A stretch of 64,000 nucleotides of DNA from a virus (lineage: Duplodnaviria > Caudoviricetes): the IMG/VR virus record IMGVR_UViG_3300014205_000170, positions 96,001 through 160,000 of that record. One strand, written 5' to 3'. A program made the translations under genes and the position numbers. Positions 9,451-60,711 of this stretch are shown here, piece by piece (within the stretch, counting starts at the first letter, position 1; every line of letters begins with the position of its first letter). The notes under the pieces were generated by a model. That model did no database searches. It was given only the letters and a program-made list of their open reading frames with translations, and was not told the origin of the DNA.

Positions 9451-9696
9451 ATGATTAAAATAAAAACCATACATTTTCTTGCTCATGAGGATGATAGCAA
9501 ATATGTTGCTGCTATTAAAGAGCATGAAGATGAGATACAAAAGTTTTTTATTTTAATAGAGTCAGAAGGACACACATTTATTAGTATGAACGAAGTGTCT
9601 TATGGGAGATTTAAAAATAACAACAGAACAAAAACAACAATATTATACCGAGAAAATTTGGTAAGAAAAGTCATTGTAGAGAAAAAAAGAAAATAA
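9451..9696 (+). CDS. small paralogue 1, C-terminal RKVIVEK motif
   Basis: Ends ILYRENLVRKVIVEKKRK. Confidence 0.7.
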   Translation: MIKIKTIHFLAHEDDSKYVAAIKEHEDEIQKFFILIESEGHTFISMNEVSYGRFKNNNRTKTTILYRENLVRKVIVEKKRK

Positions 9697-9905
9697 TGGA
9701 ACGGAAAGTGTTTCAAGCAAATGTTTATAATAGATTAGATTATGATGAATCAATTAATAAAATCTTGAAAGAGATAACAGAAGAAGGACATACTTTAGTT
9801 TCATACGCGACTATGATGATTGGGTCTGAAAGAATGCAAACAGAAGTGATATATCGAGAAAACTTTGCTAGAAAAGTTATTGTAGAAAAAGAACAAATGG
9901 CATGA
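9696..9905 (+). CDS. small paralogue 2, C-terminal RKVIVEK motif
   Basis: Ends VIYRENFARKVIVEKEQMA. Confidence 0.7.
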   Translation: MERKVFQANVYNRLDYDESINKILKEITEEGHTLVSYATMMIGSERMQTEVIYRENFARKVIVEKEQMA

Positions 9906-10144
9906 TTAAAAGAAAATTATTTAAAGGTAGTGTTGGAGGAGAAGAAGTATTTGACAAATTAATAGATGATTTTTTTAAAGAAATAGCAGACAATGAATAT
10001 ACAATAATACACTACAATACTATTGCTTGTGGATATTCAAAAGGATATATTGATAAATTAAGAACAGAAATTATATATAGAGAGAATACTGTAAGAAGAG
10101 TTATTGTAGAAAAAAACAAAAAAGAAAATGAGAATACTTTATAG
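9902..10144 (+). CDS. small paralogue 3, C-terminal RRVIVEK motif
   Basis: C-terminal IIYRENTVRRVIVEKN. Confidence 0.7.
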   Translation: MIKRKLFKGSVGGEEVFDKLIDDFFKEIADNEYTIIHYNTIACGYSKGYIDKLRTEIIYRENTVRRVIVEKNKKENENTL

Positions 10145-10343
10145 ATTGTTAATGTGTTTATTGTATGTTGGTGTATTTTTGTCAATAATTATGGAACCTG
10201 TGATTTTTATATTTCTTTGGATTTTAACAGGAAAAGATAATTTAACAGGTTCTATAGTGGATTACATTTTAAAAAAGGAAGATGAGTGGTTTGGATGTAA
10301 AATAGTTCGACAAATTTTAATAGAAAAAACAATATACAAATGA
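10128..10343 (+). CDS. small membrane protein, C-terminal RQILIEK motif
   Basis: Hydrophobic N-terminal half; motif at 10308-10328. Confidence 0.6.
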   Translation: MRILYRLLMCLLYVGVFLSIIMEPVIFIFLWILTGKDNLTGSIVDYILKKEDEWFGCKIVRQILIEKTIYK

Positions 10344-11095
10344 AGCAAAGAACATTAAAAATAAGACTTGGTGATGATGACCCAACACCAATTAAATTGA
10401 ACGAGAAAGAGCATAAAACATATGTTAAAGCAGTTCAAAACTTATCGTTGGCATTAAATACTCTTGGTGGTTCTCTGTACGAAAAAGGAGAAGGGGTTCA
10501 AAATACAGCAAATACTATATGTGCTTCTTTGGATTTATATGCTGCAGATATTCAAAAAATTCTTAAATATGATTCAAAACTATTAAGAGATAAAGAAGAA
10601 CGTTATAAAGAAATTCGTGAACTAAATCAAGAAAACAGAGAATTACGAGAAGAAATTGGCAAAGCGGTAACAAACGACCATTTAAGAGAAAAGCTTAAAT
10701 GCATGGTTAAAACAATTGAAAATTGGTGGAACGATAATCACTTAGGTTATAGTGAAGTTAAATTTTATGGAAGTATTATTCATGTCGAGTTTAAAGTTGC
10801 AATGTACATTCACCTTGATTTAAACACTGCTGCTGAACAAGAAGAATTTATTAAAAAACATTCTTCTGAACTAGGGTTAAAATTAGCTCCTGTTAATCCT
10901 AATCGTTATGAAACACGTCCAGATTTAATCGATAATGAACATAACAAAAAAATCATTGATAAGTTGGTTAAAGCTAGATTTCCATCTGCGAAAATTGATA
11001 CAATTCAAATTCGTTATACAGAAAATGATATGGGTGAAGCAACCTCAAGAATTTTAAGTTTTAGTTATTATCTAAGAAATTACGATGAAGTCTAA
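10340..11095 (+). CDS. hypothetical phage protein with coiled coil
   Basis: 251 aa ORF; ERYKEIRELNQENRELREEIG helix. Confidence 0.65.
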   Translation: MKQRTLKIRLGDDDPTPIKLNEKEHKTYVKAVQNLSLALNTLGGSLYEKGEGVQNTANTICASLDLYAADIQKILKYDSKLLRDKEERYKEIRELNQENRELREEIGKAVTNDHLREKLKCMVKTIENWWNDNHLGYSEVKFYGSIIHVEFKVAMYIHLDLNTAAEQEEFIKKHSSELGLKLAPVNPNRYETRPDLIDNEHNKKIIDKLVKARFPSAKIDTIQIRYTENDMGEATSRILSFSYYLRNYDEV

Positions 11096-11501
11096 ACAGG
11101 TTATAGTTTTAAGAAAAGATTTAAAAAATGCAAAGGGCGAAAAAGTTCGGTCTGGTAAATTGTGTAGTCAAGCTGCGCATGCTTCTCTAAAAGTTATTAT
11201 TGATTTAATGCGCCAGAATGAAGATGCAGTGCAAACACAATTAATATTAGACATTAAAAAAGACTCTGCTTTGAATGATTGGATAAAAGGACATTATACT
11301 AAAATATCTGTAAGCGTTAATTCAGAAGCTGAATTATTACAAATATACAATACCGCAAAAGAAAGTGGTTTAATTTGTTCTTTAATTACAGATGCTGGCT
11401 TTACTGAATTTGAAGGGATTCCGACACTAACAGCTGTTGCAATAGGTCCAGCTTGGGAAAATGAAGTTGATGCAATTACCGGAAAACTACCTTTATTATA
11501 A
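11085..11501 (+). CDS. pth2: peptidyl-tRNA hydrolase, Pth2 type
   Basis: KQVIVLRKDL, GKLCSQAAHAS, ITDAGFTEF, TAVAIGP, ITGKLPLL. Confidence 0.9.
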   Translation: MKSKQVIVLRKDLKNAKGEKVRSGKLCSQAAHASLKVIIDLMRQNEDAVQTQLILDIKKDSALNDWIKGHYTKISVSVNSEAELLQIYNTAKESGLICSLITDAGFTEFEGIPTLTAVAIGPAWENEVDAITGKLPLL

Positions 11502-11520
11502 AAAAATAACTCAAAACAAA

Positions 11521-14067: not shown

Positions 14068-14571
14068 ATGGGAATAGATACAAATATACATATTGGTCCT
14101 TTTATGATTGTAAAAGGGACAATAACTTTCGAATCAGAAGAATCTGTTGAAACATGTTCAAATGAAAAATGCATAAATTTTGTCAAGAACAAACAACTTG
14201 CACAAGGTTTTTGTCCTAAATGTGGTTCACCAGTTGCAGAAAGAAAATATACTGACTCGGAAGAACTTGATGCAAGTGATTTGGTTTATCACGAAAAATA
14301 TTATAATAATTTTGAAGATAAATTGGTGTGGACAGACCCAATGGGTTGTGATAATGGAGTTTTCATTACTAATCAAAATATGCCAAGCGAAATTGATGTA
14401 GAAAATTTTGATTCAGAAAATTCTTTCGCTATTGACCTTACTAAAACAGATTTTGATAAACAAATTAATTGGTTTAGTGAACATTACAAAAAGCAAATAG
14501 ATATTTTAAAAAAGGAATTTGGTGAAGAATCTATTGAGATAAAATGTGGTATAGTTCAATGGTTTTCATAA
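14068..14571 (+). CDS. zinc-ribbon hypothetical protein
   Basis: C..C and FCPKCGS motifs. Confidence 0.6.
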   Translation: MGIDTNIHIGPFMIVKGTITFESEESVETCSNEKCINFVKNKQLAQGFCPKCGSPVAERKYTDSEELDASDLVYHEKYYNNFEDKLVWTDPMGCDNGVFITNQNMPSEIDVENFDSENSFAIDLTKTDFDKQINWFSEHYKKQIDILKKEFGEESIEIKCGIVQWFS

Positions 14572-14792
14572 TGAGTCGAGCAACAAGAATAATGTTAATA
14601 GAAAAGCATTTTGACATAACTCCTCGTTTTTCTTTTACTCATCGTGGAATAAAAGAAGCAGGAATATTTATTAGAGAAATAGGTGGCATTGAACAAATGT
14701 ATGAAACTTGGCCACCTTGGTTTAATCCAACTGTACTAGGTATAATTCATAGAGCAAATAACTTTTGGGAAAGATTAAAAAACAATGAATAA
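14571..14792 (+). CDS. small protein, N-terminal RIMLIEK motif
   Basis: ATG 14571 overlaps the previous stop; begins MSRATRIMLIEKH. Confidence 0.6.
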   Translation: MSRATRIMLIEKHFDITPRFSFTHRGIKEAGIFIREIGGIEQMYETWPPWFNPTVLGIIHRANNFWERLKNNE

Positions 14793-16978: not shown

Positions 16979-16979
16979 T

Positions 16980-19073: not shown

Positions 19074-19592
19074 ATGAAAAAATTTAATTCTAAAGATTAT
19101 TGTATTTTTAAAATTAGATATTATGCTAGTGACTACCTTTTGAAAAAATGGCGAGAAGGTGCAGCTCAACCAAAGCAACATTATTATAGAGCAGAACAAT
19201 TAACTAAATTCAAATGGGAGTTAATCAAAAAAATAACCGGAAGAACACATAATTACTATTGGAAATTATATATGGTCGAAACAACTGAGTGTGTTTTTGA
19301 TGAATTAGTTGAATTTCATAATGTTCTAACACTTGATAATGAAAAGTATTTTCTTTTATTAATACCTGTAAAAAAGAAAAAATTAATAGAATGGGTAAAA
19401 GAAAATGTAAAATTACCATATATAATTTTAAACAAAACACGTTCTTATTTTTATTTTGAAAGGTTAAAACATAATGTTTCAAACAACGGAAGAAGAGAAA
19501 GAGCAAAACAATTTTCAGAAAAGAGATTATTAAAATGGTTTAAAGAAGATAATACGAGAAAATTATTAATTGAAAAACACCATAATGGATAA
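19074..19592 (+). CDS. hypothetical protein, C-terminal RKLLIEK motif
   Basis: Motif at 19557-19577. Confidence 0.6.
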   Translation: MKKFNSKDYCIFKIRYYASDYLLKKWREGAAQPKQHYYRAEQLTKFKWELIKKITGRTHNYYWKLYMVETTECVFDELVEFHNVLTLDNEKYFLLLIPVKKKKLIEWVKENVKLPYIILNKTRSYFYFERLKHNVSNNGRRERAKQFSEKRLLKWFKEDNTRKLLIEKHHNG

Positions 19593-20235: not shown

Positions 20236-20652
20236 ATGTTTCCAACATTTACTCATACATTCACTTATAAAGCATTACCTTTAAAAAGACAGTATAGTAA
20301 AAACAATTTTAAAATTCAAAAGTTTCATCGACTAGGTTGGTATCATGTTTTTTATAACGAACACTTAATTGGAACTTTTAGAAATGAATTTACTGAATTT
20401 GGTTCTGGACTAATTAGTTTATGGTCTACTTCTTTTAAAATGGAATTGGGCGCATTTGAAGATATGGCGATAGGCGGAACAGTTATTTTTAGATTATTAG
20501 ACACAGATAGGGTAAAACTACATATAATTGATGTTTTTCCGGAAACGTTTCAAAAATTTGTTTTCGCAAAATCTGTATTAGTTGAAAAACAAAACAAAAA
20601 TGTATTTCCTATTGCTCAACGTGTATTGGCTAGGACATTTATTAATGTATAA
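20236..20652 (+). CDS. hypothetical protein, KSVLVEK motif
   Basis: Motif at 20569-20589. Confidence 0.55.
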   Translation: MFPTFTHTFTYKALPLKRQYSKNNFKIQKFHRLGWYHVFYNEHLIGTFRNEFTEFGSGLISLWSTSFKMELGAFEDMAIGGTVIFRLLDTDRVKLHIIDVFPETFQKFVFAKSVLVEKQNKNVFPIAQRVLARTFINV

Positions 20653-21214
20653 TACTTTTAAAATATTTGAAATTTTACCACCTTTACCAATAGTTTCTGT
20701 AACTACCAGGGAAGTTTTATTTGAAAAACATAAAACATTGCAACTTAAACAAACTTATGAAAGACTTCAAAAAACTTTTCTTAAAAGAGGTGAATATATA
20801 TGGTTTGCAAATTGCAATACTTTTGAAATTACCAAATACGTGATTGCAAAAGTGCCGACAGAAATAATTTATAGACAACTAGACAGAGAAAACAGAATAA
20901 CTTTTTTTAGTCGAAGCGGTAAAGATGATATTTCTATTGGGTGTCAAAAATTTTTAGACTCTTTTGATGCTCAAACAGCAATTCCTGTTCAGGTTTTTGG
21001 AGTTTCGGATAAACAATTAATTTGTTCTTCTCAACAAAATGCTATTCTTGCATTGAAAATTTATATTCCACAAGCCATTAAAATGTTAAATGAACAGATT
21101 CAAAATTCAATCGAATTTCAATCTGCATTTAAAGTATTTGAAAAAAGAAAAATAATACAAAAACTATCAAAACTTCAAAAAAAAATTAATAGGTTCTTAT
21201 TAGAAAAAAAATAA
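20645..21214 (+). CDS. hypothetical protein, N-terminal REVLFEK motif
   Basis: Motif at 20708-20728; C-terminus NRFLLEKK is a near match. Confidence 0.55.
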   Translation: MYNTFKIFEILPPLPIVSVTTREVLFEKHKTLQLKQTYERLQKTFLKRGEYIWFANCNTFEITKYVIAKVPTEIIYRQLDRENRITFFSRSGKDDISIGCQKFLDSFDAQTAIPVQVFGVSDKQLICSSQQNAILALKIYIPQAIKMLNEQIQNSIEFQSAFKVFEKRKIIQKLSKLQKKINRFLLEKK

Positions 21215-21227: not shown

Positions 21228-21536
21228 GTGAAATTTATTCCTACAACATCAACTTTGAAAAATCCTTTACCGGACCCAGCAGCTTCACATCCTTTTATAC
21301 AATCATTAGGTGAAAACTATGAAGACATAATGTGCTATTGTTTAGGAGAACATTGGAGAGCAACTTCTTTAAAAGAATCCCTTAATTGGTTTAACAAAAG
21401 ACTCGGAATTACTATATCTGAAACCACTAATGTTTTGGAAACAAGTCAGATTATAAAATCAAGATATGAATGGCTTCTATGTTATCATAGATACAGAGAA
21501 GTATTAATAGAAAAAACACATAACATTTTAAGGTAA
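21228..21536 (+). CDS. hypothetical protein, C-terminal REVLIEK motif
   Basis: Motif at 21495-21515. Confidence 0.6.
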   Translation: MKFIPTTSTLKNPLPDPAASHPFIQSLGENYEDIMCYCLGEHWRATSLKESLNWFNKRLGITISETTNVLETSQIIKSRYEWLLCYHRYREVLIEKTHNILR

Positions 21537-22114
21537 TGGGTTGCGATATTCACACATATGTAGAAACTAGAAAAACTTCTAAACACAAATGGAGATTGTT
21601 AAATAAAGAACATTTTTCAAAATTTGATTATAGTTTAAAAGCTTTTATTAAAAATAGTACTTCTTCCCCTTTTTCCTCAAGACATTATGCATTATTTGGA
21701 GTTTTAGCTGGTGTTCGATATAATGACATAAAATCATTTGGTAAACCAAAAGGAATTCCAGATGATGTATCTTATTCAGTGGGAAAATTTTGGAAAGCCG
21801 AGGAGGGTGATGCACACTCAGCATCTCATTTAAGTGTTAAAGAATTAATCGAATTTAATTTTTTTGAAGAGATGGAATATGATGATAGCTTTTATGAAGA
21901 GTTTTCAATTCATCCACATAAATTTGGTAACACATTTGGAAACAGGGTCGTTTGCATTGAAAAAGAAAGACCTAAGAACATATACATGCATAAAAAATAT
22001 AAACAAACTTTAAAAGCTTTTATTGGAGAATTGTTTTTTGTACAACTAGATGAAATGTGTGATTTACATCAAGACCCCGAAAATGTTAGATTAGTATTTT
22101 GGTTTGATAATTAA
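21536..22114 (+). CDS. conserved phage protein (MGCDIH...RLVFWFDN type), internal RVVCIEK
   Basis: MGCDIH, R.Y.LF..LAGVR, KG.P.D.S, HS.S.L...EL, RLVFWFDN. Confidence 0.7.
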   Translation: MGCDIHTYVETRKTSKHKWRLLNKEHFSKFDYSLKAFIKNSTSSPFSSRHYALFGVLAGVRYNDIKSFGKPKGIPDDVSYSVGKFWKAEEGDAHSASHLSVKELIEFNFFEEMEYDDSFYEEFSIHPHKFGNTFGNRVVCIEKERPKNIYMHKKYKQTLKAFIGELFFVQLDEMCDLHQDPENVRLVFWFDN

Positions 22115-22614
22115 TGTCAATTCTTGATAACAGAACATATTATGTAGGTCATTTTACATTTACTCCAAATAGAGCCGGAGATACGCGAGATTTTATGGTT
22201 TTATATGCTGATGAACCAATAGGGACATTTTCAACAAGACAATCGGTCAAATCCACATATTCTCACAAAAACAATGAACCTTATTGTTATGAAATTTTTG
22301 AATTCCCTATTCTAGATGAAGAAAAAATTATTGTAGGTAGTTTTAAAGTCACTCTATTTCATTTGACTAGAGACCCTTATAACGATTTAAAAGAGAATGG
22401 TTTTAATAAATTAAAAATAGATAATATTCAAATCGATTTGTCAAAATCAGATTATATTAAAAAAAAATTTGTATCTCCAAGAGAAATATTAACTGAAAAA
22501 TATCAAGAAATTACTATAAATATTTACGGTCAGGTATATACAGTCAGAAAAGGTATCGCTCGATACAATAAAAACACCATAAATCAAACCTATTATAATT
22601 CTTTCCTTTTATAG
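22114..22614 (+). CDS. hypothetical protein, REILTEK motif
   Basis: Motif at 22480-22500. Confidence 0.55.
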   Translation: MSILDNRTYYVGHFTFTPNRAGDTRDFMVLYADEPIGTFSTRQSVKSTYSHKNNEPYCYEIFEFPILDEEKIIVGSFKVTLFHLTRDPYNDLKENGFNKLKIDNIQIDLSKSDYIKKKFVSPREILTEKYQEITINIYGQVYTVRKGIARYNKNTINQTYYNSFLL

Positions 22615-23059: not shown

Positions 23060-23398
23060 TTGGTGGGTGATTTACTAAAAAACAAAGAAGTTACAATAAA
23101 AAAAGCTAGGTTTTGTTGGGGTTGTGCCTCAAAAAAAGAACCTGGCACAATAATGAATTATCTGGTCTACGTTGAAGATTCTGACCTTTTAACATCATAT
23201 TGGTGTGAAGTATGTAATGCATATTTTAATTCACATTCAGAATATTTGGATGACGGTATACTGTATGGGGAACTTAAAGGAGAAAGGTCATATGAAGAAT
23301 TTAAGCAAGATTATTTACATCCAACACGAGAAGTACTTTTTGAAAAAAATATTGAATTTTGGAAAGGGTTTATGGCAAGAATAAAATTACACAAATAA
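23060..23398 (+). CDS. zinc-binding phage protein, C-terminal REVLFEK motif
   Basis: KKARFCWGC...YWCEVC; motif at 23327-23347. Confidence 0.6.
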   Translation: MVGDLLKNKEVTIKKARFCWGCASKKEPGTIMNYLVYVEDSDLLTSYWCEVCNAYFNSHSEYLDDGILYGELKGERSYEEFKQDYLHPTREVLFEKNIEFWKGFMARIKLHK

Positions 23399-23401: not shown

Positions 23402-23863
23402 ATGAAAAATCAAGAACAAACATTTTTAAAAAAATACTGGAATTTAATATTTGTAATTTTAATTACTCTTTGTGCAATTTTAGCACTTGCTTTTGCATTG
23501 TCATATTTTGAAAAAAAGGATGAGCTTATTAAAATTCAAAATCAATATAACAAACTTTTTTTAGAAGAATCAACCATTAATAGTACTTTAAAAAAACAAA
23601 CAGTTCGTGCGGATTCAATGAATAAAATTTTAAATCGTATTGGAAAGTATATGCCAATGGCAGCTTCTCTTCAATATAGAGATTCTGTATGTTCAAAACT
23701 ACCATATAAAACCGGAACTGTTATTTGGCTAAAACCAGATTCATTAAAATGTGTTATTACTTCGTTTGTAATTAAAGGTAGTCAATGGCAACACAGTGTA
23801 TCTTACTTAGTAAAAGATAGTTCCGGAAAGGAAAAAGAAATTTCTCCTGAAATTATTTACTAA
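23402..23863 (+). CDS. membrane-anchored hypothetical protein
   Basis: Single N-terminal TM helix followed by a coiled coil. Confidence 0.6.
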   Translation: MKNQEQTFLKKYWNLIFVILITLCAILALAFALSYFEKKDELIKIQNQYNKLFLEESTINSTLKKQTVRADSMNKILNRIGKYMPMAASLQYRDSVCSKLPYKTGTVIWLKPDSLKCVITSFVIKGSQWQHSVSYLVKDSSGKEKEISPEIIY

Positions 23864-24300
23864 TGACCATTAGAAAAAGAATAAAAAATAAATGGCATTC
23901 TCAATTAGGGGATTTTTTATTTAAAAGGGCCACATATCATCCAACGGGTGAACGCTCTTTTGAAGTGTGGTATAAACATGATTTTATTGGTGATTGTTTT
24001 TTAGGGAATTCTTATTGGATAAAGACCATTGACCCTTTCCCTGAATCTATATCTTCTAATTATAAAGAAGAGGATTTAAGAGTCGCAAGAATAGATATGA
24101 GACTTGAAGCTAATAAAGAATTTATAAGTGGACATGTTGGTAGATTGATTTACACAGGACTTAGAAATCAATTTCCAGAAAAAATTCTGTATGTTGAATT
24201 ACATGATAATATTTTAAAATTAAAAAACAGCATTGTTACAAAAACAGTATTTGTAGAAAAACTCAAAAAAAAATTAGTTCCAAAAGAAGATGAGTTTTAA
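23863..24300 (+). CDS. hypothetical protein, C-terminal KTVFVEK motif
   Basis: Motif at 24241-24261. Confidence 0.55.
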   Translation: MTIRKRIKNKWHSQLGDFLFKRATYHPTGERSFEVWYKHDFIGDCFLGNSYWIKTIDPFPESISSNYKEEDLRVARIDMRLEANKEFISGHVGRLIYTGLRNQFPEKILYVELHDNILKLKNSIVTKTVFVEKLKKKLVPKEDEF

Positions 24301-24751
24301 GAAAAAAAACAAAAAGAATAAGGGTGGTCCTAGAAAAAAATGGTCTAAAACCAAAGGAGATTTCACTGTAAAACATCCAATTTATGATGGAGGAGATGTT
24401 TATATTGATGTATATTATAAAGATGAATTAATAGGCATTGTTGAATCTTATTCAACACTTAGATATTTAGACCAAACTGATGAATATGAACTTGTAATTA
24501 ATTCAATACAAAAAGAAGATGCAGTCGAAATTTTTCGTTCGAGAGTTATTGGTTTTATGAAATGCAGAGGATTATCTCATAGATTACCAAAAGTAATTGA
24601 TAATATATATTTAAGTGCAGATTGTGAACTCATTTTAACAAAATGTTTATTAATAGAAAAATATTTCGAAAATAATCAAACACGATTTGTTGTGGGACTA
24701 TCACCTATAAGACGAAGAAGAAGAGTTGCAGCCAAAGGACCTGACCGTTAA
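24290..24751 (+). CDS. hypothetical protein, KCLLIEK motif
   Basis: Motif at 24641-24661; N-terminus resembles the preceding ORF (K.KW...GDF......Y.....V.YK...IG). Confidence 0.55.
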   Translation: MSFKKKNKKNKGGPRKKWSKTKGDFTVKHPIYDGGDVYIDVYYKDELIGIVESYSTLRYLDQTDEYELVINSIQKEDAVEIFRSRVIGFMKCRGLSHRLPKVIDNIYLSADCELILTKCLLIEKYFENNQTRFVVGLSPIRRRRRVAAKGPDR

Positions 24752-25149
24752 TGTTAAACAACAGAGTAAATATTGATAAATTTAATTATACTTTTAAAGT
24801 ATATTCTGAAGAAGAAATTAAACAAGTTCGTTTTAATGTTATGAAAATAATTATTGTAAAGAACAAAGGACATGCTAGAGCTATTCGTAAAAGAACAAAA
24901 TGTAATGAAGTAATAACCGGAGATATTTTTTATAGTGAATCATGGTGGTTAGAGGCAGAAGAATTTAAATTTCTTCCTCCCACAAAAACAGGAATGGCCA
25001 TACAAAGGAACAATGAAATAATTTGGTACTCAATTCCTGGCATTCCAAAAGGAACCGCTAAGCGTACAATATTATTTGAAAAAAGCCCCAGAACACGTTT
25101 AAAAATAAAAATAAAACACACTCAATTATCAAACAAATATGATATTTAA
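24751..25149 (+). CDS. hypothetical protein, RTILFEK motif
   Basis: Motif at 25063-25083. Confidence 0.55.
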   Translation: MLNNRVNIDKFNYTFKVYSEEEIKQVRFNVMKIIIVKNKGHARAIRKRTKCNEVITGDIFYSESWWLEAEEFKFLPPTKTGMAIQRNNEIIWYSIPGIPKGTAKRTILFEKSPRTRLKIKIKHTQLSNKYDI

Positions 25150-25514: not shown

Positions 25515-26051
25515 ATGGCTTTGGTTCAATCAAAAAAGGTATTATTTGAAAAAACATCTAAATTATCTTCATCGATAGGATTTAGATTTGTGAACAACAT
25601 TGCATTTATTACTGATAAACACATAGCTTTTCATTTTAAAAATGATAATTTAAATTGCATATTAGTATGGACATCCCTTCAAAAAGAGTGTTTTCATACA
25701 GATAATGGCCTATCTAATAAAATGAATCATTTTTATGAGAAAACCATAAATCAAAACAACTTCTTTTATGAGGGTTTAGGTTTAATGTCTGAAACATCTT
25801 TCATCAATTCAGGGTTTAAAGAATTATCAAAAAATGCTAATGTTTGGGAAACAATAAATAAATTATGTTTAATTGGAGAAATCGTCAAAATAAATGTTTT
25901 AAAGTATTTAGATAACATTTATACTGTAGATGATGCCATAGCCTCAACAACACTGTCAACAGACCATTTATTCAACACTTTAAAGACTCAGTTTGTTAAT
26001 TTAACAATGAATGAATTTCAAAGAAAATTTCAAACAATTGGAATACCATAA
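25515..26051 (+). CDS. hypothetical protein, N-terminal KKVLFEK motif
   Basis: Motif at 25533-25553. Confidence 0.6.
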   Translation: MALVQSKKVLFEKTSKLSSSIGFRFVNNIAFITDKHIAFHFKNDNLNCILVWTSLQKECFHTDNGLSNKMNHFYEKTINQNNFFYEGLGLMSETSFINSGFKELSKNANVWETINKLCLIGEIVKINVLKYLDNIYTVDDAIASTTLSTDHLFNTLKTQFVNLTMNEFQRKFQTIGIP

Positions 26052-26079: not shown

Positions 26080-26550
26080 ATGAACAAGACCACTAAACCC
26101 ACTATTATAGACGACATTGTATTTGAAGTGCAATTTGCATTGTGTGATGTCCTATATAGAAAACTTTTGAGTTTACTGGCTTCTACTCATACGGAAACTT
26201 TATTATTACCTTTTAATGAATTATATCAATTTCGTTTAAGTGCGGAGTTAAATGCAAAATATGCTTTAAGTTTTTATTCTAAAAGAACGAATAATAGTCA
26301 ATCTTATGAGGATATGTTGGATTTTAAAAAGAAAATTTCTATTACTGAAATTCAGGACCCAGTAATATTATTTATTTTAGAACAAAAATTAGAAAATAAA
26401 CCTGAGCTTTATTCTGCGTGGGCAGAGACAGTAAAAAAAGCTATTAAAAAGTTAATGGAAGAAGAAAAAAAATTTAAAAATATTTTAGAGGATATTAAAA
26501 ATTTACCTTTTGATTCTCCGACACGAGAAGTAATTATTGAAAAGAATTAA
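26080..26550 (+). CDS. hypothetical protein, C-terminal REVIIEK motif
   Basis: Motif at 26524-26544, one residue before the stop. Confidence 0.6.
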   Translation: MNKTTKPTIIDDIVFEVQFALCDVLYRKLLSLLASTHTETLLLPFNELYQFRLSAELNAKYALSFYSKRTNNSQSYEDMLDFKKKISITEIQDPVILFILEQKLENKPELYSAWAETVKKAIKKLMEEEKKFKNILEDIKNLPFDSPTREVIIEKN

Positions 26551-26783
26551 TGGAAATTGAATATAAATTATCATATTTTGAAACACCTAAGAGAAAAGTT
26601 TTAATTGAAAAAAACAATCCTAGTTGGTTAGATGCTTATTTTGATACTACATTTTCGGTAGATATAAATGCGCTCTTTTTACAACAAGTGGCTCTACAAA
26701 CCATAATGAAAGATAATATGTTTTCTTCTGTTGGGATACCTTCTCATTTAATAAAACCGTCTAATGAGAATAGTGCTGATTGA
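26550..26783 (+). CDS. small protein, N-terminal RKVLIEK motif
   Basis: Motif at 26592-26612. Confidence 0.55.
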   Translation: MEIEYKLSYFETPKRKVLIEKNNPSWLDAYFDTTFSVDINALFLQQVALQTIMKDNMFSSVGIPSHLIKPSNENSAD

Positions 26784-27390
26784 AAAAACATTAGACAATA
26801 AAGACCTTTTAAATTTAAGTGACACTCTTAAAAAAGCCAATCTTGTTACTGAAATTGTGTTTTTTTCAAATGACCTTATAATTTTTAGAGGTGAAAATAC
26901 TTTTATAAAGAAAGCAAATCATAGAAAAGCTTATGATGTAAAAACACAAAGAATAATTGCAATATCTTGTATGGCTTTACCCCAAAAAGAGTTTCTATAT
27001 TTAAGAAATAAAATACACTCTTTGGATATCTCAAATTATTATCCAAAATTTGATGGGATACCATATAGATTTATAAATTTACTAGGTCATGATAGGGTAT
27101 TGAAATCATTTCAACCAAATGAATTTTACGAACAACATGAAAAAGAAATAATAAATTTAATTTTCAGCAGTCATATAACTTTAAAAAAGAGTGTTAAAGA
27201 ATTTTTATCTTATGATTTAAATAATATGAGAGATAGTATAATCAAGGAAATTTTTAAAAATTATTCTAATGTGTATAAATTTTATCGTAAGCAAATAAAT
27301 ACACAAATTATTGAAGATGAAATCGTAAAAAAAGCTAAACAAATGAGATTATTAAATTTAAATAAAAATGGAAAACAACAAGTGGCTTAA
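26764..27390 (+). CDS. hypothetical protein beginning M-RIVLIEK
   Basis: Motif at 26767-26787, directly after the initiator Met. Confidence 0.6.
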   Translation: MRIVLIEKTLDNKDLLNLSDTLKKANLVTEIVFFSNDLIIFRGENTFIKKANHRKAYDVKTQRIIAISCMALPQKEFLYLRNKIHSLDISNYYPKFDGIPYRFINLLGHDRVLKSFQPNEFYEQHEKEIINLIFSSHITLKKSVKEFLSYDLNNMRDSIIKEIFKNYSNVYKFYRKQINTQIIEDEIVKKAKQMRLLNLNKNGKQQVA

Positions 27391-40742: not shown

Positions 40743-41251
40743 TGAAAAACAAGAATTTATATAACGATATTTTAGATGCTTTAATAGAAAAAGTTATTCC
40801 ATCAATAGTAAACAATCTTCAAGAAATGGGTATGGATAATTTCAGTTCAGCCATATTCGCAAGCTTTTCTTTACCGATTTTTAAATATATCAATCAAGAA
40901 TTTCCTTATCAAATAGATGACCTTCCAAAAGTCAAAACAGCCGACAATCAAGAACAAATCTTTGTGGTATTAAACATAAATTCAAAAGGAGAATTAATAA
41001 TATCAAAAGATGTAAGAACAAATGAGTTGGGATTAACGGAATTGACAGAGCCAATATTAATTTCCGACAATGCTGCTGAGGCTTTTAAAAACATGAATTT
41101 AAATACACAATTATTGTTTTATTTTTCAAACGAATTAACCCAGAGAGTGAAGGTTCAAGAAGCAGATAAGTTACAAATGATTGATTTATTTGAAAATATG
41201 AATAAAGTTAATTTAAAATTAACTCGAAAAACCTTAATGGAGAAGAAATAA
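40742..41251 (+). CDS. hypothetical protein, C-terminal RKTLMEK motif
   Basis: Motif at 41225-41245. Confidence 0.6.
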   Translation: MKNKNLYNDILDALIEKVIPSIVNNLQEMGMDNFSSAIFASFSLPIFKYINQEFPYQIDDLPKVKTADNQEQIFVVLNINSKGELIISKDVRTNELGLTELTEPILISDNAAEAFKNMNLNTQLLFYFSNELTQRVKVQEADKLQMIDLFENMNKVNLKLTRKTLMEKK

Positions 41252-41268: not shown

Positions 41269-41934
41269 ATGGACAACAAGATAAATTGGAGCTCAGAGGA
41301 ATTGAATTTTAATAATGAGAAACCTCTTCAAACACAAGAAGATAAAAAAACCGAAGAAAAAGATAATAAGGCTATTGAATATTCTCCCAGAATAGTTCAA
41401 GAACATGAAGTTATTTTTGATAATAATTGGTTGAAAGTAAAAAGAGCCGGAGGATATATTTATTCTGAACGTAAAGGAGTGGATTCAGTAGCATTCGTAT
41501 TAATTGCTATTAATGCTGCTGATGAGCGTAGAATAGGATTGATAAACGAATTTAAAGACCCAATACAAGATTTTCTCACCACAGCATTTGGTGGTTCAAT
41601 TGACAATGAAAAATACCATAAAGATTTAAGATTATTGGTAAAAGATGAGGTTATTGAAGAAGCTGGATTTGATGTTTCTTTCAATCAAATTGAATATCAT
41701 GGTAAAGCAATGGTTTCAACTCAAAGTAATCAATTTTGTCATTTATTTTCTGTTGAAGTTGATAAAATGAAACAAGGAGATAGAACAACGACCAATGCTA
41801 CAGAATTAAAATCCACTGTCACTTGGCTTTCTATGTCAGAAATAAAACAATTAGATGATTGGAAATCTCAAACTATCATTTTAAGAAGAATGATGTCAAG
41901 AAATGGTTTAGTTTATGTAAGTACTGCCAAGTAG
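41269..41934 (+). CDS. Nudix hydrolase
   Basis: Degenerate Nudix box GGSIDNE.......VKDEVIEEAGF. Confidence 0.7.
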   Translation: MDNKINWSSEELNFNNEKPLQTQEDKKTEEKDNKAIEYSPRIVQEHEVIFDNNWLKVKRAGGYIYSERKGVDSVAFVLIAINAADERRIGLINEFKDPIQDFLTTAFGGSIDNEKYHKDLRLLVKDEVIEEAGFDVSFNQIEYHGKAMVSTQSNQFCHLFSVEVDKMKQGDRTTTNATELKSTVTWLSMSEIKQLDDWKSQTIILRRMMSRNGLVYVSTAK

Positions 41935-46687: not shown

Positions 46688-46957
46688 ATGGGGTTTGAAA
46701 ATTTATATAAAAAGGAAGTTTTAATAGAAAAATTTCATAAACTTAAAAAAGATGATTTTATTAAAATAAGAAACAGCTTTTGTGTTGAAACATTAATTTT
46801 CAAAGACCATAAAAATAGTATCGGAAAAGTTCTTTCAATAAACACGGCAGGGAAAGACGTTCTAGTGGTTAAGTGGATATATTTAACTGACAACACACAT
46901 TCATTGCCAACGTTTATACATATAGAGAATGTGATTAAGTATAATTCTAAAATTTAA
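46688..46957 (+). CDS. small protein, N-terminal KEVLIEK motif
   Basis: Motif at 46712-46732. Confidence 0.55.
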   Translation: MGFENLYKKEVLIEKFHKLKKDDFIKIRNSFCVETLIFKDHKNSIGKVLSINTAGKDVLVVKWIYLTDNTHSLPTFIHIENVIKYNSKI

Positions 46958-49583: not shown

Positions 49584-49874
49584 GTGTCAGTATGTAGTTT
49601 ATGCAATCAATCTATGGATGAATGTGAAAAAGATACATTCTGTGCTAGAAATATTTTAAATTCAAAACCACAACTTGTCATAACTAATGAGTGGGGACAA
49701 AAGATAACATACTTTAGTTTTCAACATGCTACCGATGCTATGAAGGAATATTCAGATGTTATTGTTAGACAATTAAATACTGAAACTAGAAAAATGTTGA
49801 TAGAAAAAATTAATACTAAACAATCAGTAAACTCTCAATTATTTAGAACATTATCAGGTATTTTAAATTCTTAA
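49584..49874 (+). CDS. small protein, RKMLIEK motif
   Basis: Motif at 49788-49808. Confidence 0.5.
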   Translation: MSVCSLCNQSMDECEKDTFCARNILNSKPQLVITNEWGQKITYFSFQHATDAMKEYSDVIVRQLNTETRKMLIEKINTKQSVNSQLFRTLSGILNS

Positions 49875-50007: not shown

Positions 50008-50517
50008 TTATAATTCCACCTCAAAAACATTTAAAATACTAGCTCTTATTATTTTCGTTTCTTTAATGGTCGAGAAGAAAGAACTGTCTATATATAAAAA
50101 TATTGCAAATTGACTTTTTGATTCAATATATTTTTTAAAAGCTCTCATTAAATCAAAATCTTCACCAAATAAAGATGCATTCCAATTTAGTCTATAACTA
50201 TTAACAGAACATGATTTACTCACTATCTTTTCATCTGGACTATACACGTTGTTTGAATAATATTTAAATTTTTTAAAATCATCTTTTTCAACAATAACTT
50301 TTCTTGTATGTATTTGCACATAATCAGAAGCTGGTTTTTGCACAACACAGCCACCCTCAGTAAGAAAAGCAGTAAATCCCGGAGTATTAACAAAAAACAC
50401 ATTTTCTAGTGGAATCTCACTTTTAGCCAACTCATTGGCCACTGATGTATAAAAACCTTCCCAAACTTTTTGATTATTAATATCGAGAAATCGATTTATA
50501 GCCGGATGAAAGTTCAT
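50008..50517 (-). CDS. hypothetical protein, internal RKVIVEK motif
   Basis: Motif at 50284-50304 (-); TATATTTG 5 nt upstream of the ATG (50523-50530). Confidence 0.6.
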   Translation of the reverse strand: MNFHPAINRFLDINNQKVWEGFYTSVANELAKSEIPLENVFFVNTPGFTAFLTEGGCVVQKPASDYVQIHTRKVIVEKDDFKKFKYYSNNVYSPDEKIVSKSCSVNSYRLNWNASLFGEDFDLMRAFKKYIESKSQFAIFLYIDSSFFSTIKETKIIRASILNVFEVEL

Positions 50518-52842: not shown

Positions 52843-53445
52843 TTATGTAGAATAAAGCATTGGCCTTAACCGGTTATATTCAATTTTTTTAGTAAGGTGC
52901 TTTTCTATATCTATGTCGAAAAATTCAATAAGCGCTCCTAAGTGAAATAAAATATGCGAAAAACCATAGTCTTGGTCCTTATCAGAAGAAAACATACACA
53001 ATGCTAATGATTCATTTAACCAATGTGATACATTTTCTTTAAAATCATGATTTGGATTTACGTTCCGGAAAAAATAATTTAGTTCAGTTTCAGATAAATT
53101 GTCAAGCCATGGATGAACTGAAACTATATTGATATTTTTACCACCAAACAAATCAGTAATTCTTAAAATTACATTCGCAATTTCATCTTCAAATGTATCT
53201 TTAATATATTCTTTGTAAATTTTACGCGTACCTTCATTTTGATTATCATTAGAATTTTCTAATTGACCTATCATTGCATCAAATTTGGACCAATTAGCTC
53301 TTCGACCTTTTTTGTAAGCCTTTGCAATATCACCAATATTAGAAAAAATGTATAACATTTCTTCTTTTAAATCTTTTTCTTTTTCCCAAAATCCATGGTC
53401 TTTGCCAAGTGTATGAGATGCTTCTATAAGAATGTGGATATTCAT
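52843..53445 (-). CDS. degenerate MazG-like NTP pyrophosphohydrolase
   Basis: HGFWE, EDEIANVILRITDL, DIEKH...K..YNR.RP; several acidic catalytic positions substituted. Confidence 0.6.
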   Translation of the reverse strand: MNIHILIEASHTLGKDHGFWEKEKDLKEEMLYIFSNIGDIAKAYKKGRRANWSKFDAMIGQLENSNDNQNEGTRKIYKEYIKDTFEDEIANVILRITDLFGGKNINIVSVHPWLDNLSETELNYFFRNVNPNHDFKENVSHWLNESLALCMFSSDKDQDYGFSHILFHLGALIEFFDIDIEKHLTKKIEYNRLRPMLYST

Positions 53446-56598: not shown

Positions 56599-57849
56599 TT
56601 AAGGTGTTAACCGGTCAATATCTCTTGGAAATAAAGTTGCAGCTTTAACACTATCTAAACCACAGATTTTTGCAGTTAATCTTTCAAGTCCAATGGCAAA
56701 ACCACCATGAAGAGGCATTCCATATTTAAACGCTTCCAAATACCCTTCAAATGCTTCGATATTCATTTTAGACGCAGATAAAGTTTCAATATAATCTTCA
56801 TATTTTTCTTTTCTTTGACCTCCAGAAGTAATTTCTATGCCTTTGTAAATTAAATCAAAACTTTCCGTCGTAATTCCATCAGGAGATAATTTTGTATAAA
56901 AAGGTCTTACATCTCTGTGATAATGGGTGGCAAAAACATAATGAGTGTCATGTTTTTCAAACGCATATTTAGCAATTTCTCTTTCTTCTTCTGATGACAT
57001 ATCCAATCCGGACGTACCTAAAATTTCTTTTATCTCACTTACTTTTAAAGTAAAAGCTTCAAAAGGGTTTTCTATAAAAGGAACTGCATTTAAAAAAATA
57101 CCTAAAAATTCTAGTTCTTTTTTTGCATGCGATTTTAAATTGTCAGTAATAGTAAACAAGATTCTTTTCTCTAGTTGAATTAATTCTGTAAAATTTTGAA
57201 ACAGAATAGTTTCAACATCAAGAGATAAATATTCATTTAAATGTCTTGATGAAGCATGTTTTTCAGCTCTAAATACAGGAGCTGTTTCATACACTTTACC
57301 AAAAACTCCACACATTATTTGTTTGTATAATTGTGGCGATTGTGCCAAGTAAGCTTCTTTATTAAAATAATCTAACTTAAATACATTTGTTCCACCTTCT
57401 GCTCCATTAGCCACAATTTTAGGAGTAGATATAGAAATATATCCTTCTTCACTTAAAAAATTTCTAAATGAATTTTGAATAATAGATTGAATTTTAAAAA
57501 TACATTTATTTTTTTCATTTCTAAGAGTTAATGCTCTGTGGTCAAAAATTAGATGTGTATCAGCATTAATATCTTTTTCGTAAATATTAATATTTGGAAC
57601 CGCAGAAGGTTGAGAAAGAATTTCAAAAGAAATTACATTAATTTCCACATCAGAAATAACCAATTCTTTTTTTATCTGTGAAGGAACTTCTTCTCCAACA
57701 ATTTTAACATAAGATTCAGATTTAATAGATTTAATGTTTATGTTTTTAAGCACACATTGATATTGCCCTTTAAAAGTTTCTAAAATAAGAAAACCTCCCC
57801 ATTTAAATTCTTTTTTTTCTCGAACAATTCCGTAGAAATTCTTTTCCAT
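56599..57849 (-). CDS. aspS: aspartyl-tRNA synthetase, short non-discriminating (archaeal/eukaryal-like) type
   Basis: TPKI...GAEGG..VF, YLAQSPQLYKQ, FRAEK..SSRHLNEY.SLDVE, RPFYT, EITSGGQR, HGGFAIGLERL, LFPRD..RLTP. Confidence 0.92.
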   Translation of the reverse strand: MEKNFYGIVREKKEFKWGGFLILETFKGQYQCVLKNINIKSIKSESYVKIVGEEVPSQIKKELVISDVEINVISFEILSQPSAVPNINIYEKDINADTHLIFDHRALTLRNEKNKCIFKIQSIIQNSFRNFLSEEGYISISTPKIVANGAEGGTNVFKLDYFNKEAYLAQSPQLYKQIMCGVFGKVYETAPVFRAEKHASSRHLNEYLSLDVETILFQNFTELIQLEKRILFTITDNLKSHAKKELEFLGIFLNAVPFIENPFEAFTLKVSEIKEILGTSGLDMSSEEEREIAKYAFEKHDTHYVFATHYHRDVRPFYTKLSPDGITTESFDLIYKGIEITSGGQRKEKYEDYIETLSASKMNIEAFEGYLEAFKYGMPLHGGFAIGLERLTAKICGLDSVKAATLFPRDIDRLTP

Positions 57850-58201
57850 TAAGATTGCTTTTTTATTTTATTTAATTCATTACATTTGGCTTCTGCTTGA
57901 GTTGCAGTGTCAAAATATTCCAAAGCTATCGCGATTGTACCGGTGTCTGTTTTATTTCCAATAATCCAACTTTGTGAACCAACATCATAACCATAATCAG
58001 TTTGCAAAGCTAATGTTACTTGTTTTGTTGGTATATTACCCCACTCTCCATTGGCGTAATGAATAAGAAGTGTGCCAAAAGACATTCCGCGCCCAACACT
58101 TTGAATTCTTTGCCATGAACCATCTTCAAGTTGTACAGTATGAAAAGAAGTTAGTTTGCTAACGAGAATTTCAATCGTTCTATCTTTTTTTTGTGTTTGT
58201 A

Positions 58202-58858: not shown

Positions 58859-59770
58859 TTAAATTCCAAATTCATTAGATAAATCCATCATAGTTTTGTA
58901 AAGTTCATTACAAAGTTCTTGAGGGTCTTCTATCTTTTTGATTTTTTTCACCTTCTCATTGTAGATGTCGATGAATTTTTGATTATTTTTAGTTTTTCTT
59001 GCTGTAACGTAAGTATGTATGAACTTTGCAAAGTTTTCTTTGAAGTCCATGGTGTTGTTTAAAGCATCCCATTCTTCCGGAGTATACAAAACTATACCAG
59101 CATCTTCAAAAGTATAATAAAGAGAACCCATTGGTCCTTTACGATTCTTTTTACCCCAAGACATTGTTCTGGTGTTCAATTTTTTATCATACACCATATC
59201 AATATGAGCATCCATCATTTGAATAATGGTATTTCTTCCGGCAAATTCACCTTCTTTAGTGTTATGGCCAATCAAAAATAATACAGCTTCATTATCGGCA
59301 ACCCATTTTCTTAAGGTTTTCACAATATAATTACAAGCATCTTCTTCTGAAATATCAGAAAAATCATACATTGCAATTGCTTGAACAGAATCCACAATCA
59401 CCACTTTAGGTTTTAAAACATCAAGTTCAGCTAAAAAATCAGAAAAATGAGGGTGAGATTGCTCATCGCAAATATGAGCATTTGTATGTTTAATATTTTC
59501 TATCACGTTTGAAGTTTGTTCACAAATGTCTTGTGATTCAACTTCTCTTTCATATAAACAAGTTGGAACCTCTGATAACCAATTCATTAAATTAATCATC
59601 AAAGTGGTTTTTCCGGCACCAGATGTGCCTGAAAGATAAATTGCAGAACGTAATACCATTCCACCTTTTCTTGAAAACCAAGTATCAAATTTCGCATTGC
59701 CCGTTTTTAAAGTTGGCACATCAAGGACTTTAACGTCTTGAAGTTTCTTACTTTTTGTCATTGTTTCCAT
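58859..59770 (-). CDS. RadA/Sms-like RecA-fold ATPase
   Basis: TG...FD, GTSGAGKTT (Walker A), VIVDSVQ (Walker B), IGHNTKEGEFAG, KNR.G. Confidence 0.8.
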   Translation of the reverse strand: METMTKSKKLQDVKVLDVPTLKTGNAKFDTWFSRKGGMVLRSAIYLSGTSGAGKTTLMINLMNWLSEVPTCLYEREVESQDICEQTSNVIENIKHTNAHICDEQSHPHFSDFLAELDVLKPKVVIVDSVQAIAMYDFSDISEEDACNYIVKTLRKWVADNEAVLFLIGHNTKEGEFAGRNTIIQMMDAHIDMVYDKKLNTRTMSWGKKNRKGPMGSLYYTFEDAGIVLYTPEEWDALNNTMDFKENFAKFIHTYVTARKTKNNQKFIDIYNEKVKKIKKIEDPQELCNELYKTMMDLSNEFGI

Positions 59771-59789
59771 TTGTTTGCTCTTTTATAAT

Positions 59790-59817
59790 TTAAACGATTC
59801 TTTAAATAAAAGGTTAC
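59790..59817 (-). promoter_or_regulatory. ECF-sigma-type promoter GTAAC-N16-CGTTTAA
   Basis: Reverse strand, upstream of the RadA-like gene. Confidence 0.72.
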
Positions 59818-59885
59818 AAACGAATGTTAAATATTTAATAATGCCATTTCACTCACCACAGCCCATTGTTCCAGATTTGCCCAAC

Positions 59886-59892
59886 TATTTAT
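59886..59892 (+). promoter_or_regulatory. putative late promoter TATTTAT
   Basis: Intergenic, upstream of the inverted prsW gene. Confidence 0.4.
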
Positions 59893-59925
59893 AGGTAACA
59901 ACAAGTAGCTAAAATTGTTAAAATC

Positions 59926-60711
59926 ATGGAAAATAATATGTTCAGCATTTTAATGGCAGTTTTGCCCGTTCTATTGTACTCTTTATTGGTGTATTATATA
60001 GTTCCACAAGGTTTCTTATCTCAAAGAAGAGCCAGATTATATGCCGTAGCAGGCATGTTATCTCCAACATTGGTATTTGTCTTTAATTACATATTTCCAC
60101 ACTGGTCTACGCCAATTGCTTCACCAGACACAATAAACATTATTGGATGTCAAACATTCATCCAAATAGCTCTAGTGGAAGAAGTAGCTAAATTTTTAAC
60201 ATTTTGGTGGGTTTTCAATCAAAGAAGAAGTGCTCTTTATGACCTTCCTATCGCTACGATTTTTTATTGCATGCTATCATCTGCGGGATTTGCTCTTATT
60301 GAAAACATATCGTATTTGATGAATTTTGGAGACCAAGTTTTATTTATTAGAGCCGTTTCAGCTATTGTTACACATATGATATGTGGTGTAATTATGGGTT
60401 ATTTTATACAAATGGCTTTCTCAACTAAAAGAACTTTAATAGAAAAGTTTTCTGTTACCGAAAAATTCAAAATACAACTACATACATTGAAATTCATTGG
60501 TTTGGGTATTTTAGCATCAACTATATTTCATGGAATATATGATTTCAATTTATTTTTACCTTTTAATATATATGCAGAGACATTTACTAATATTATACTA
60601 TTTTTTGGTTTATTTATTTGTATGTTTATGATTATCGATGGAATTAGATTAAGCAAGGATTTAAGAAGTAAAGATTATAAAAAAGATTTAGAAAGAAATT
60701 ATATAGAATAA
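59926..60711 (+). CDS. prsW: PrsW-family intramembrane metalloprotease
   Basis: EEVAK, GFALIEN..Y, RA....TH....GVIMG, FHGIYD motifs; multiple TMs. Confidence 0.88.
   Translation: MENNMFSILMAVLPVLLYSLLVYYIVPQGFLSQRRARLYAVAGMLSPTLVFVFNYIFPHWSTPIASPDTINIIGCQTFIQIALVEEVAKFLTFWWVFNQRRSALYDLPIATIFYCMLSSAGFALIENISYLMNFGDQVLFIRAVSAIVTHMICGVIMGYFIQMAFSTKRTLIEKFSVTEKFKIQLHTLKFIGLGILASTIFHGIYDFNLFLPFNIYAETFTNIILFFGLFICMFMIIDGIRLSKDLRSKDYKKDLERNYIE

Follow-up and report, generated by a model that had tools for sequence, protein, structure and literature searches.

The locus examined here raises the question of why some thirty small phage proteins that otherwise share little should carry the same short peptide, [RK]-x-V-L-I-E-K, and of what might read it. 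The window, as the whole 64,000-bp stretch of DNA analysed is called, comprises bases 96,001-160,000 of the virus record IMGVR_UViG_3300014205_000170 (G000), a complete genome of 518,809 bp with direct terminal repeats and 30% G+C, which belongs to an uncultured phage and was traced to a landfill metagenome (its DNA run, the probable source, was the one sequencing run listed, with none of RNA). An earlier reading of the window sequence (the original prediction) had proposed that the peptide is a tag that docks many accessory proteins on one hub, and all 31 copies that it had listed were found in place, 29 of them in the frame of a greedily called open reading frame (ORF). The tag is real and strongly selected, and it extends far beyond the window, as about a quarter of the proteins of G000 carry it, in the general form T-R-x-V-L-x-E-K.

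The tag and its carriers

Across G000, the regular expression of the original prediction matched in frame 179 times in 177 of 836 ORFs, as against 4.1 ± 2.2 matches in shuffled proteins, an enrichment larger genome-wide than had been claimed. The other five frames together added 16 matches, about half of them in real small ORFs that the caller had skipped. A position-weight scan, with a score cut-off of 11.2 that admits about two false sites per shuffled proteome, returned 207 sites in 204 of the 836 ORFs, with exactly one site in 201 of these, which bears out the claim that there is usually one copy per protein. The consensus over the 207 sites was [T65/K35/S28]-[R164/K34]-x-[V158/I29]-[L143/I34/F13]-[I75/F34/T32/L31/V24]-E207-K204, with Glu present at all 207 sites and Lys at 204 of them, and with an information content of about 18 bits. 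The residue before Arg was Thr or Ser at 93 of the 207 sites. When gapped 4-mers were ranked by enrichment without reference to the motif, R.V..EK came first, with 121 occurrences against 2.1 expected, and no conservation was seen in the 14 residues on either side of the tag. This is the largest set of proteins under a tag of such a kind known to us.

Selection acts on the peptide, and in a frame-specific manner, as had originally been concluded from synonymous codon variation. The competing explanation is a DNA or RNA signal at gene junctions, such as a promoter, ribosome-binding region, recombination site or mobile mini-element (REP/MITE-like), that is translated incidentally; many copies do lie 5-25 nt upstream of the following start codon, and the DNA consensus of the tag, TTAATAGAAAAA, is AT-rich. 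Near-exact matches to this consensus, however, fell in the coding frame in 22 of 26 cases, a second stop-free frame being nearly unused, and third codon positions tracked the codon usage of the genome (Val, p=0.995; Glu, p=0.43; Lys, p=0.13), with small deviations within the tag for Arg, Leu and Ile. A relative was also found to encode the same peptide in GC-rich form (CGC CGG GTT CTC GTA GAG AAA). Comparison of 26 orthologous tag pairs showed identity at 105 of 130 core residues (81%), as against 41.6% across the rest of the aligned proteins, and 38 of these 105 identical residues (36%) were specified by different codons. Among orthologues at 28-57% identity the tag was kept in 25 of 30; two of the five counted losses were near variants (RTVMMEK and RYLVTEK), and the clear losses concerned large conserved proteins in which the G000 match is probably due to chance. 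The junction-element explanation was therefore considered refuted by the evidence from frame, codon use, orthologues and GC-rich codons, and its probability negligible.

The carriers are short, with a median length of 122 residues; 37-40% of proteins of 80-160 residues were tagged, as against 3 of 127 proteins longer than 300 residues. They lack signal peptides and anchors, and a membrane segment was predicted in only 4 of 188 carriers, compared with 55 of 378 untagged proteins in the same size range (p=7e-7). Many are encoded in tandem arrays of fast-evolving small genes, and only about 12 of the 150 longest referenced carriers had a Pfam match. Among those that could be named are two paralogues of the tail tube protein, one of the head protease and two or three fragments of the gp23-like capsid protein that the phage itself encodes; the Acb3-like, PrsW, GT2 and PcfJ carriers scored near the threshold (12.7-14.9) and may be chance matches. 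Clustering by BLAST divided 177 carriers into 143 components, of which 118 were singletons, and AlphaFold models of two tagged families gave two folds, a Sm-like barrel (mean pLDDT 77.8) and a beta-alpha-beta-beta unit (82.9), for which fold searches returned weak likenesses only (a Sm/Hfq-like barrel and an ACT-like alpha/beta fold). With 143 components, unconserved flanks and two folds, the carriers do not form a single paralogous family in which the motif would occupy a constant position of a common fold. As originally observed, TopA, the tRNA synthetases, the NadR-like protein and the TonB-dependent receptor were untagged.

A terminal bias, also part of the original prediction, was evident throughout G000. 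Sites within 25 residues of an end made up 72% of the total against 48% expected, the C-terminal 25 residues holding about 46% of sites and the N-terminal 25 about a quarter, so that 28% were internal and the middles of proteins were avoided. A C-terminal tail of 10 residues or fewer followed 29.5% of sites (10% expected), and the Lys of the tag was never the final residue, at least one residue always following and tails of 1-25 residues being common. In the tail-tube and capsid paralogues the tag occupies an extension at the N- or C-terminus, or an insertion, when compared with the parent protein, and in the models of both tagged families it forms a coil that follows the last strand and in which pLDDT drops to 55-61. 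The terminal bias, the extensions and insertions of the paralogues and the modelled coil together show the tag to be an appended, exposed linear motif that lies outside the folded or homologous part of the protein.

Three small genes of G000, at 432124-432528 (+), 469916-470308 (-) and 308534-308767 (-), are derived from pieces of the gp23-like capsid protein that span residues about 29-107, 275-355 and 460-506, the pieces being preceded, separated or followed by tags. In the first of these genes, the tag stands in place of the sequence that links the N-terminal helix to the PMVRR block, about 20 residues before PMVRR, which is where T4 gp23 is cut; the same gene contains what we take to be the counterpart of the Gol region of T4 gp23. 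The tail-tube paralogues, at 261867-262433 (+) and 367880-368494 (-) of G000 and at 2258-3245 of the European Nucleotide Archive (ENA) contig L254, bear the tag either in an extension at the N-terminus or in an insertion that precedes the last strand, and the insertion form, …[RK]-x-[VI]-L-F-E-K-K-G…LS[IVF]DR, is common to the 367880-368494 gene and both L254 copies.

Sites in the window and distribution among relatives

Within the window about 17-18 sites were C-terminal and 7-8 N-terminal, all on the plus strand unless noted. The C-terminal copies begin with a run of adjacent ORFs: RKVIVEK at 9664-9684, three residues before the C-terminus of ORF 9451-9696; RKVIVEK at 9870-9890, in the C-terminal tail of ORF 9696-9905, where it was modelled as a coil after the fold; RRVIVEK at 10094-10114 (ORF 9902-10144); and RQILIEK at 10308-10328 (ORF 10128-10343), whose product is among the few carriers with an N-terminal hydrophobic segment. 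They continue with RKLLIEK at 19557-19577 (ORF 19074-19592) and REVLFEK at 23327-23347 (ORF 23060-23398), both kept in the orthologue from the related contig G001, and with KSVLVEK at 20569-20589, about 21 residues before the C-terminus of ORF 20236-20652, which the ORF caller had dropped. Further copies in this position are REVLIEK at 21495-21515 (ORF 21228-21536), KTVFVEK at 24241-24261 (ORF 23863-24300), RTILFEK at 25063-25083 (ORF 24751-25149), RIVLIEK at 31317-31337 (ORF 30915-31352), RETLIEK at 38979-38999 (ORF 38706-39008), RTVILEK at 40707-40727 (ORF 40308-40742) and RKTLMEK at 41225-41245 (ORF 40742-41251), together with REVIIEK at 26524-26544 (ORF 26080-26550) and RYVLMEK at 40277-40297 (ORF 39749-40303), each a single residue before the C-terminus, and R-T-E-I-L-I-E-K, a variant one residue longer, at 30899-30922 (ORF 30512-30934).

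The N-terminal copies are RIMLIEK at 14586-14606 (ORF 14544-14792, the likely start being the ATG at 14571), REVLFEK at 20708-20728, in the N-terminal part of ORF 20582-21214, KKVLFEK at 25533-25553 (residue 7 of ORF 25515-26051), RKVLIEK at 26592-26612 (residue 15 of ORF 26550-26783), RIVLIEK at 26767-26787 (residue 2 of ORF 26764-27390), RHVLVEK at 33444-33464 (residue 10 of ORF 33417-33830), KEVLIEK at 46712-46732 (residue 9 of ORF 46688-46957) and a weak KTVFVEK (score 13.7) at 36600-36620 (residue 23 of ORF 36534-37097). Farther from the ends lie RVVCIEK at 21944-21964 (residue 137 of 192, ORF 21536-22114), which is internal and is kept in the orthologue from contig G002, REILTEK at 22480-22500 (residue 123 of 166, ORF 22114-22614) and, on the minus strand, an internal RKVIVEK at 50284-50304 (residue 72 of 169, ORF 50008-50517). 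KCLLIEK at 24641-24661 (ORF 24290-24751), RKMLIEK at 49788-49808 (ORF 49584-49874) and KRTLIEK at 60427-60447 complete the set; the last, in the PrsW-protease domain of ORF 59926-60711, is weak (14.9 against the threshold of 11.2) and possibly a chance match. Two weak and doubtful sites were found by the position-weight scan only, NNVLLEK at 30253-30273 (-) (score 14.4, ORF 29902-30456) and KIILSEK at 61085-61105 (-) (score 13.2, ORF 60920-61339). Regular-expression matches to RKLLMEK (34917-34937, +), KAILMEK (57841-57861, -) and KVLLVEK (60417-60437, -) are out of frame or antisense, at chance level, and were not counted as part of the feature.

By protein similarity the nearest named relatives of G000 are the huge uncultured phages LR756502, LR745206 and LR756501 and the Prevotella Lak phages, which reach 29-44% identity at the phage-encoded TonB-dependent receptor. 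This gene lies at 31387-33417 (+) of the window (Plug and beta-barrel domains, E=1e-21); a search of viral_contigs returned no locus related through it, and no match was obtained when 23 kb of the window was compared with the phage collection by megablast. A DNA pattern of the tag matched 80 times in G000, as against 0-1 times in LR756502, LR745206, LR756501 and Lak-A1. Closer relatives carry the tag. G001 and G002, two IMG/VR contigs from one sample that represent one relative of G000 (about 70% nucleotide identity in core genes, median 58% protein identity), have 33 in-frame sites in 163 ORFs and 63 in 417, respectively. Two and four tags were found on the short IMG/VR contigs G011 and G012 (capsid protein 89-90% identical), four strong tags in 20 kb of L254 (capsid protein 89.5%, protease 82%) and eight strong tags in 20 kb of L255, an ENA soil contig (capsid protein 82.6%, protease 71%), where most of them sit in N-terminal leaders of 5-20 residues with the form [DN]-[AVI]-Q-T-R-x-V-L-[FY]-E-K. 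The 46 other IMG/VR contigs, with capsid proteins 36-82% identical to that of G000, had 0-2 tags each, which is the chance level; they include two complete genomes (372 and 388 kb) and G006 (232 kb, 88% complete). By these comparisons the tag is restricted to one clade, in keeping with the lineage specificity that the original prediction had raised.

No analogous motif was found in G006, a genome of large genes (median 204 residues). A conserved 147-residue carrier of G000 (398783-399226, +), with its tag at residue 11, has a homologue in G006 (62293-62757, -) in which RRKLILEK occupies the matching N-terminal position and may be an ancestral copy. G000 is about twice the size of G006, whose capsid protein is 82% identical, and tagged genes sum to about 76 kb of G000, which ties them in with the difference in genome size. 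Separately, F-x-G-C-S-S-L / T-N-M-x-x-M-F recurs in about 16-20 places in G006, which we read as candidate BspA-type leucine-rich repeats. In LR756502.1 (642 kb; e.g., at 10-90 kb), about 50 proteins start with MK[HY]LKxY[KN][IE][FS]ES, followed some 20-35 residues downstream by a second motif, [IL]xDxLx[DE]LxD[DE]G[FY], and look like one paralogue family; their start resembles the capsid targeting sequence (CTS) of phage T4 in being short, beginning with MK and ending with I-F-E.

What may read the tag

One common partner probably reads the tag as an extended strand. In such a strand R, V, the fifth position and K lie on one face and L and E on the other, and because both faces are conserved, the motif is rich in information and each protein has one exposed copy, recognition in a groove or cleft of one partner would be expected. 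A single reader is an inference, as are its identity, the cleavage and the packaging. Of the original prediction, the peptide-level motif on unrelated proteins was upheld, whereas docking on one hub stays a proposal.

The most likely single mechanism, if a tentative one, would be a signal for head loading and cleavage that resembles the T4 CTS. The tag would bind the prohead core, possibly in the cleft of the T4-type S77 prohead protease, and the carriers would thereby co-assemble into the very large head; the protease would then cut after the invariant Glu (P3 = L/I/F, P1 = E, P1' = K), and the cargo would be delivered alongside the DNA at the next infection. Taken to the scale of the proteome, about 200 small soluble effectors, including cut-down versions of the phage's own capsid, tube and protease proteins, would be pre-packed in a giant capsid by means of one peptide read by the prohead core or protease and would be injected with the DNA, a joint reading that is rather doubtful. 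In T4 itself, gp21, like its relatives, cuts after Glu, the CTS is a terminal propeptide of 10-19 residues that suffices for foreign proteins to be loaded into the head, Alt is processed at its C-terminus too, and gp21 has an L-I-E site of its own (PMC9026906, PMC5694885). The SPN3US virion, with 86 proteins representing 33% of the genes, provides a precedent for a large cargo set.

G000 has a T4-type head module on its minus strand, consisting of an S77 prohead protease at 358997-359665 (PF03420 at 359153-359566, E=2.9e-32; phrog_207, E=9e-57), a scaffold at 357450-358925 and a gp23-like capsid protein at 355857-357416 that matches T4 gp23 structures (E=3e-22). The C-terminal end of the scaffold reads ...EIRRMKRLAGISKKVEE. 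Two residues before the Glu of the tag, Leu was found at 143, Ile at 34 and Phe at 13 of the 207 sites, which fits a site type with a hydrophobic P3 and Glu at P1. The scaffold has an A-L-I/L-E site near its N-terminus, in tagged and untagged relatives alike. This site was counted in favour of the CTS-like mechanism, together with the tag of the mini capsid paralogue at the gp23 cut region, the N-terminal leaders of L255 and the near absence of tags from the terminal gene block of G000. The original observation that L/I-x-E is the site type cut by the T4 prohead protease is consistent with this head module and serves as a lead only. The capsid protein and scaffold, the bona fide substrates of the protease, lack the full tag.

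Four promoter-like motifs were found in G000, although 144 of the 204 tagged genes lie in operons that could not be assigned to a motif. The bipartite ones, with a common upstream GTAACA box, were noted at 0-46 kb, at 516-519 kb and in the window. GTAACA-N(12-20)-CGTATAGTA is found ahead of almost all small genes of the terminal block at 0-46 kb; this block, in which about 100 small genes (0-40 kb) have a promoter-like motif of their own, contains hardly any tags. In the tagged arrays, operons are headed by GTAACA-N(12-20)-TCGTTTAA, with window sites near 1463, 17419, 37821 and 44415 (+) and near 52096 and 59790 (-). The motif [CA]CTATTTA lies before the genes for scaffold and capsid protein and before other large genes taken as structural, and a Bacteroidota-like TTTG...TAnnTTTG is also present.

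Several results weigh against a CTS-like mechanism. Tagged genes mostly share long operons with the genes for tRNA synthetases, TopA and a NadR-like protein, and are less frequent (about 9-13%) where the operon begins with the motif of the scaffold and capsid type. The 204 carriers far exceed any known head cargo set, and the terminal propeptide of 10-19 residues expected at the N-terminus was not the rule, only about a quarter of sites being within 25 residues of that end; for the nearly one half that are C-terminal, cleavage after Glu would leave the tag on the protein, unlike a CTS. The sites of the capsid protein (LLE/MLNE) and scaffold (ALIE) have no R-x-V...K context, and genes of the S77 family, ClpP and the ClpC-like ATPase also occur in tag-less relatives and mark no tag clade. 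Nor was the reader found by phylogenetic profiling or by Pfam searches. It was because of the huge carrier set, the gene context, the lack of R-x-V...K in capsid and scaffold and the retention of C-terminal tags that this mechanism was ranked no higher than tentative. Prediction of a complex between the prohead protease (32-sequence alignment) and a 69-residue tagged protein gave a score of 0.00, which speaks neither for nor against binding.

A docking motif for a hub outside the head, either a clade-specific phage protein or a host complex, is a further candidate, and a clade-specific reader of this kind is equally possible, if doubtful when taken by itself. It would account for a tag that is present in one clade only while the protease, ClpP and ClpC are also found in tag-less relatives, and for carrier genes whose context is early- or middle-like. 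The phylogenetic profile yielded 82 untagged proteins common to G000 and G001/G002 and absent from G006, G008, G015 and 400 kb of LR756502, several of them well conserved but without a known function, such as DUF6642, DUF7873 and the products of window genes 52846-53445 (-) and 41269-41931 (+). Pfam searches with about 20 candidates from this list and a looser one returned RtcB, a deaminase, a ligase, a methylase, DUF6642, DUF7873 and unknowns, with NAD synthase and NAPRTase on the looser list only, and no obvious hub among these candidates stood out; it is also hard to explain one cytoplasmic partner for about 200 unrelated proteins, and about 18 bits is more than typical docking motifs contain. 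A degron or adaptor-binding tag, through which a AAA+ protease (phage ClpC-like/ClpP or host) would unfold and degrade the carriers at a set time, is unlikely. The phage does encode ClpP (172455-172985) and a ClpC-like ATPase (at about 174 kb of G000), the tag lies in exposed terminal tails of soluble proteins, and signals of the ClpX type are known at either terminus, as Flynn et al. are said to have found in 2003; yet the two Clp genes are equally present in LR756502, LR745206 and Lak-A1, which are tag-less, besides G000 and G001, and the earliest-looking gene block is almost untagged. Moreover, the tag is never at the very C-terminus, where an ssrA- or ClpX-type degron would be placed, and is internal in about 28% of carriers, and its five near-invariant positions contrast with the short, low-information degrons that are known.

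If there were no common partner, the peptide would be an intrinsic element (a capping strand, a solubility aid or a nascent-chain signal in the ribosome tunnel) or the remnant of an exploded paralogue family. This would suit the tandem arrays of fast-evolving genes and the frequent placement of tags 10 residues or fewer from the stop, in operons where stop and start codons overlap, but is very unlikely, given that the carriers are of independent origin (capsid fragments, tail-tube paralogues, Sm-like versus alpha/beta folds), that the distance to the stop varies over 1-25 residues and a quarter of tags are N-terminal, and that the models put the tag outside the fold. There is only a slim chance that the tags pair with one another, R-x-V-L-x-E being self-complementary in antiparallel orientation (R against E, V against L) so that carriers would zip into mixed assemblies; the pattern itself, the single copy per protein and the flexible tails would suit this, but it would explain neither the invariant Lys nor the preference for Thr before Arg, and promiscuity among 200 proteins would have no obvious use. 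Import into a phage compartment, which the original prediction had listed as a candidate, was unsupported, as the replication enzymes that would need such import are exactly the untagged ones. A Tat signal (S/T-R-R-x-F-L-K) was rejected because the second motif position is Arg only now and then, the copies are mostly C-terminal and the carriers are depleted of hydrophobic segments; a DnaK site was dropped because the invariant Glu argues against it, and an arrest peptide because the distance to the stop codon is variable. A TonB box, a clamp-binding motif and a frameshift site were also considered and dropped.

Comparison with known systems

A literature search found no description of such a tag in huge phages or in any phage, and in a review of jumbo phages from 2026 terminal peptide signals go unmentioned, import into the phage nucleus being stated to proceed without them (PMC13282480). 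The tag is apparently undescribed. Its scale is unusual, a quarter of a viral proteome bearing one sharply defined peptide, and it groups hundreds of small ORFans into one functional class of soluble, accessory proteins with shared handling. It also offers an experimental hook for finding the reader, and would be a portable tool if it were a true loading or degradation signal.

Among systems that label proteins with short peptides, the encapsulin cargo-loading peptides, of the Gly-Ser-Leu type in consensus, are likewise terminal address labels on diverse cargo, which bind the inner face of an HK97-fold shell. Their consensus is unrelated to that of the tag, and each encapsulin system has one to a few cargo proteins. 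The T4 CTS (Mullaney and Black 1996; reviewed in PMC9026906) is a short terminal peptide on unrelated small proteins that ends in hydrophobic-x-Glu, the S77 site type, and has a variable, clade-specific carrier set, all of which resembles the tag and its carriers in a phage with a T4-type protease, scaffold and gp23-like module. It differs in having another sequence and a handful of carriers rather than about 200, and it lacks the additional invariant positions R, V and K; of the tags, only about a quarter lie at the N-terminus, with almost half at the C-terminus and some in loops, the carrier genes lie mostly outside the presumed late operons, and packaging and cleavage in G000 are predicted only. 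The signals of AAA+ proteases (ssrA and the N- and C-motifs of ClpX) are exposed, portable labels at either terminus, and the phage has a ClpP and a ClpC-like protein of its own, but the tag keeps off the extreme terminus, carries more information and is sometimes internal, and the Clp genes do not track it.

The cleavage sites of viral proteases such as picornavirus 3C (LEVLFQ/GP) and potyvirus NIa (ENLYFQ/G) are similar in form, being seven-residue sites in exposed linkers or tails with P6, P4, P3, P1 and P1' fixed and P5 free, and some copies of the tag (REVLFEK) resemble the 3C site. These sites, however, separate the domains of polyproteins, unlike the tag, which occurs once per separately encoded protein, and no chymotrypsin-like protease was found in G000, a search for trypsin-like proteases (PF13365) in G000, G001, G002, G006 and LR756502 returning none. 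The LPXTG/sortase and PEP-CTERM/exosortase systems, finally, also place one motif on dozens to hundreds of proteins, once each, near a terminus and within restricted lineages, but there a membrane anchor follows the motif and the proteins are secreted, unlike the soluble carriers of the tag. The tag thus acts like known portable labels, yet fits the definition of none of them, whether T4 CTS, Clp degron, encapsulin peptide or sortase-type signal.

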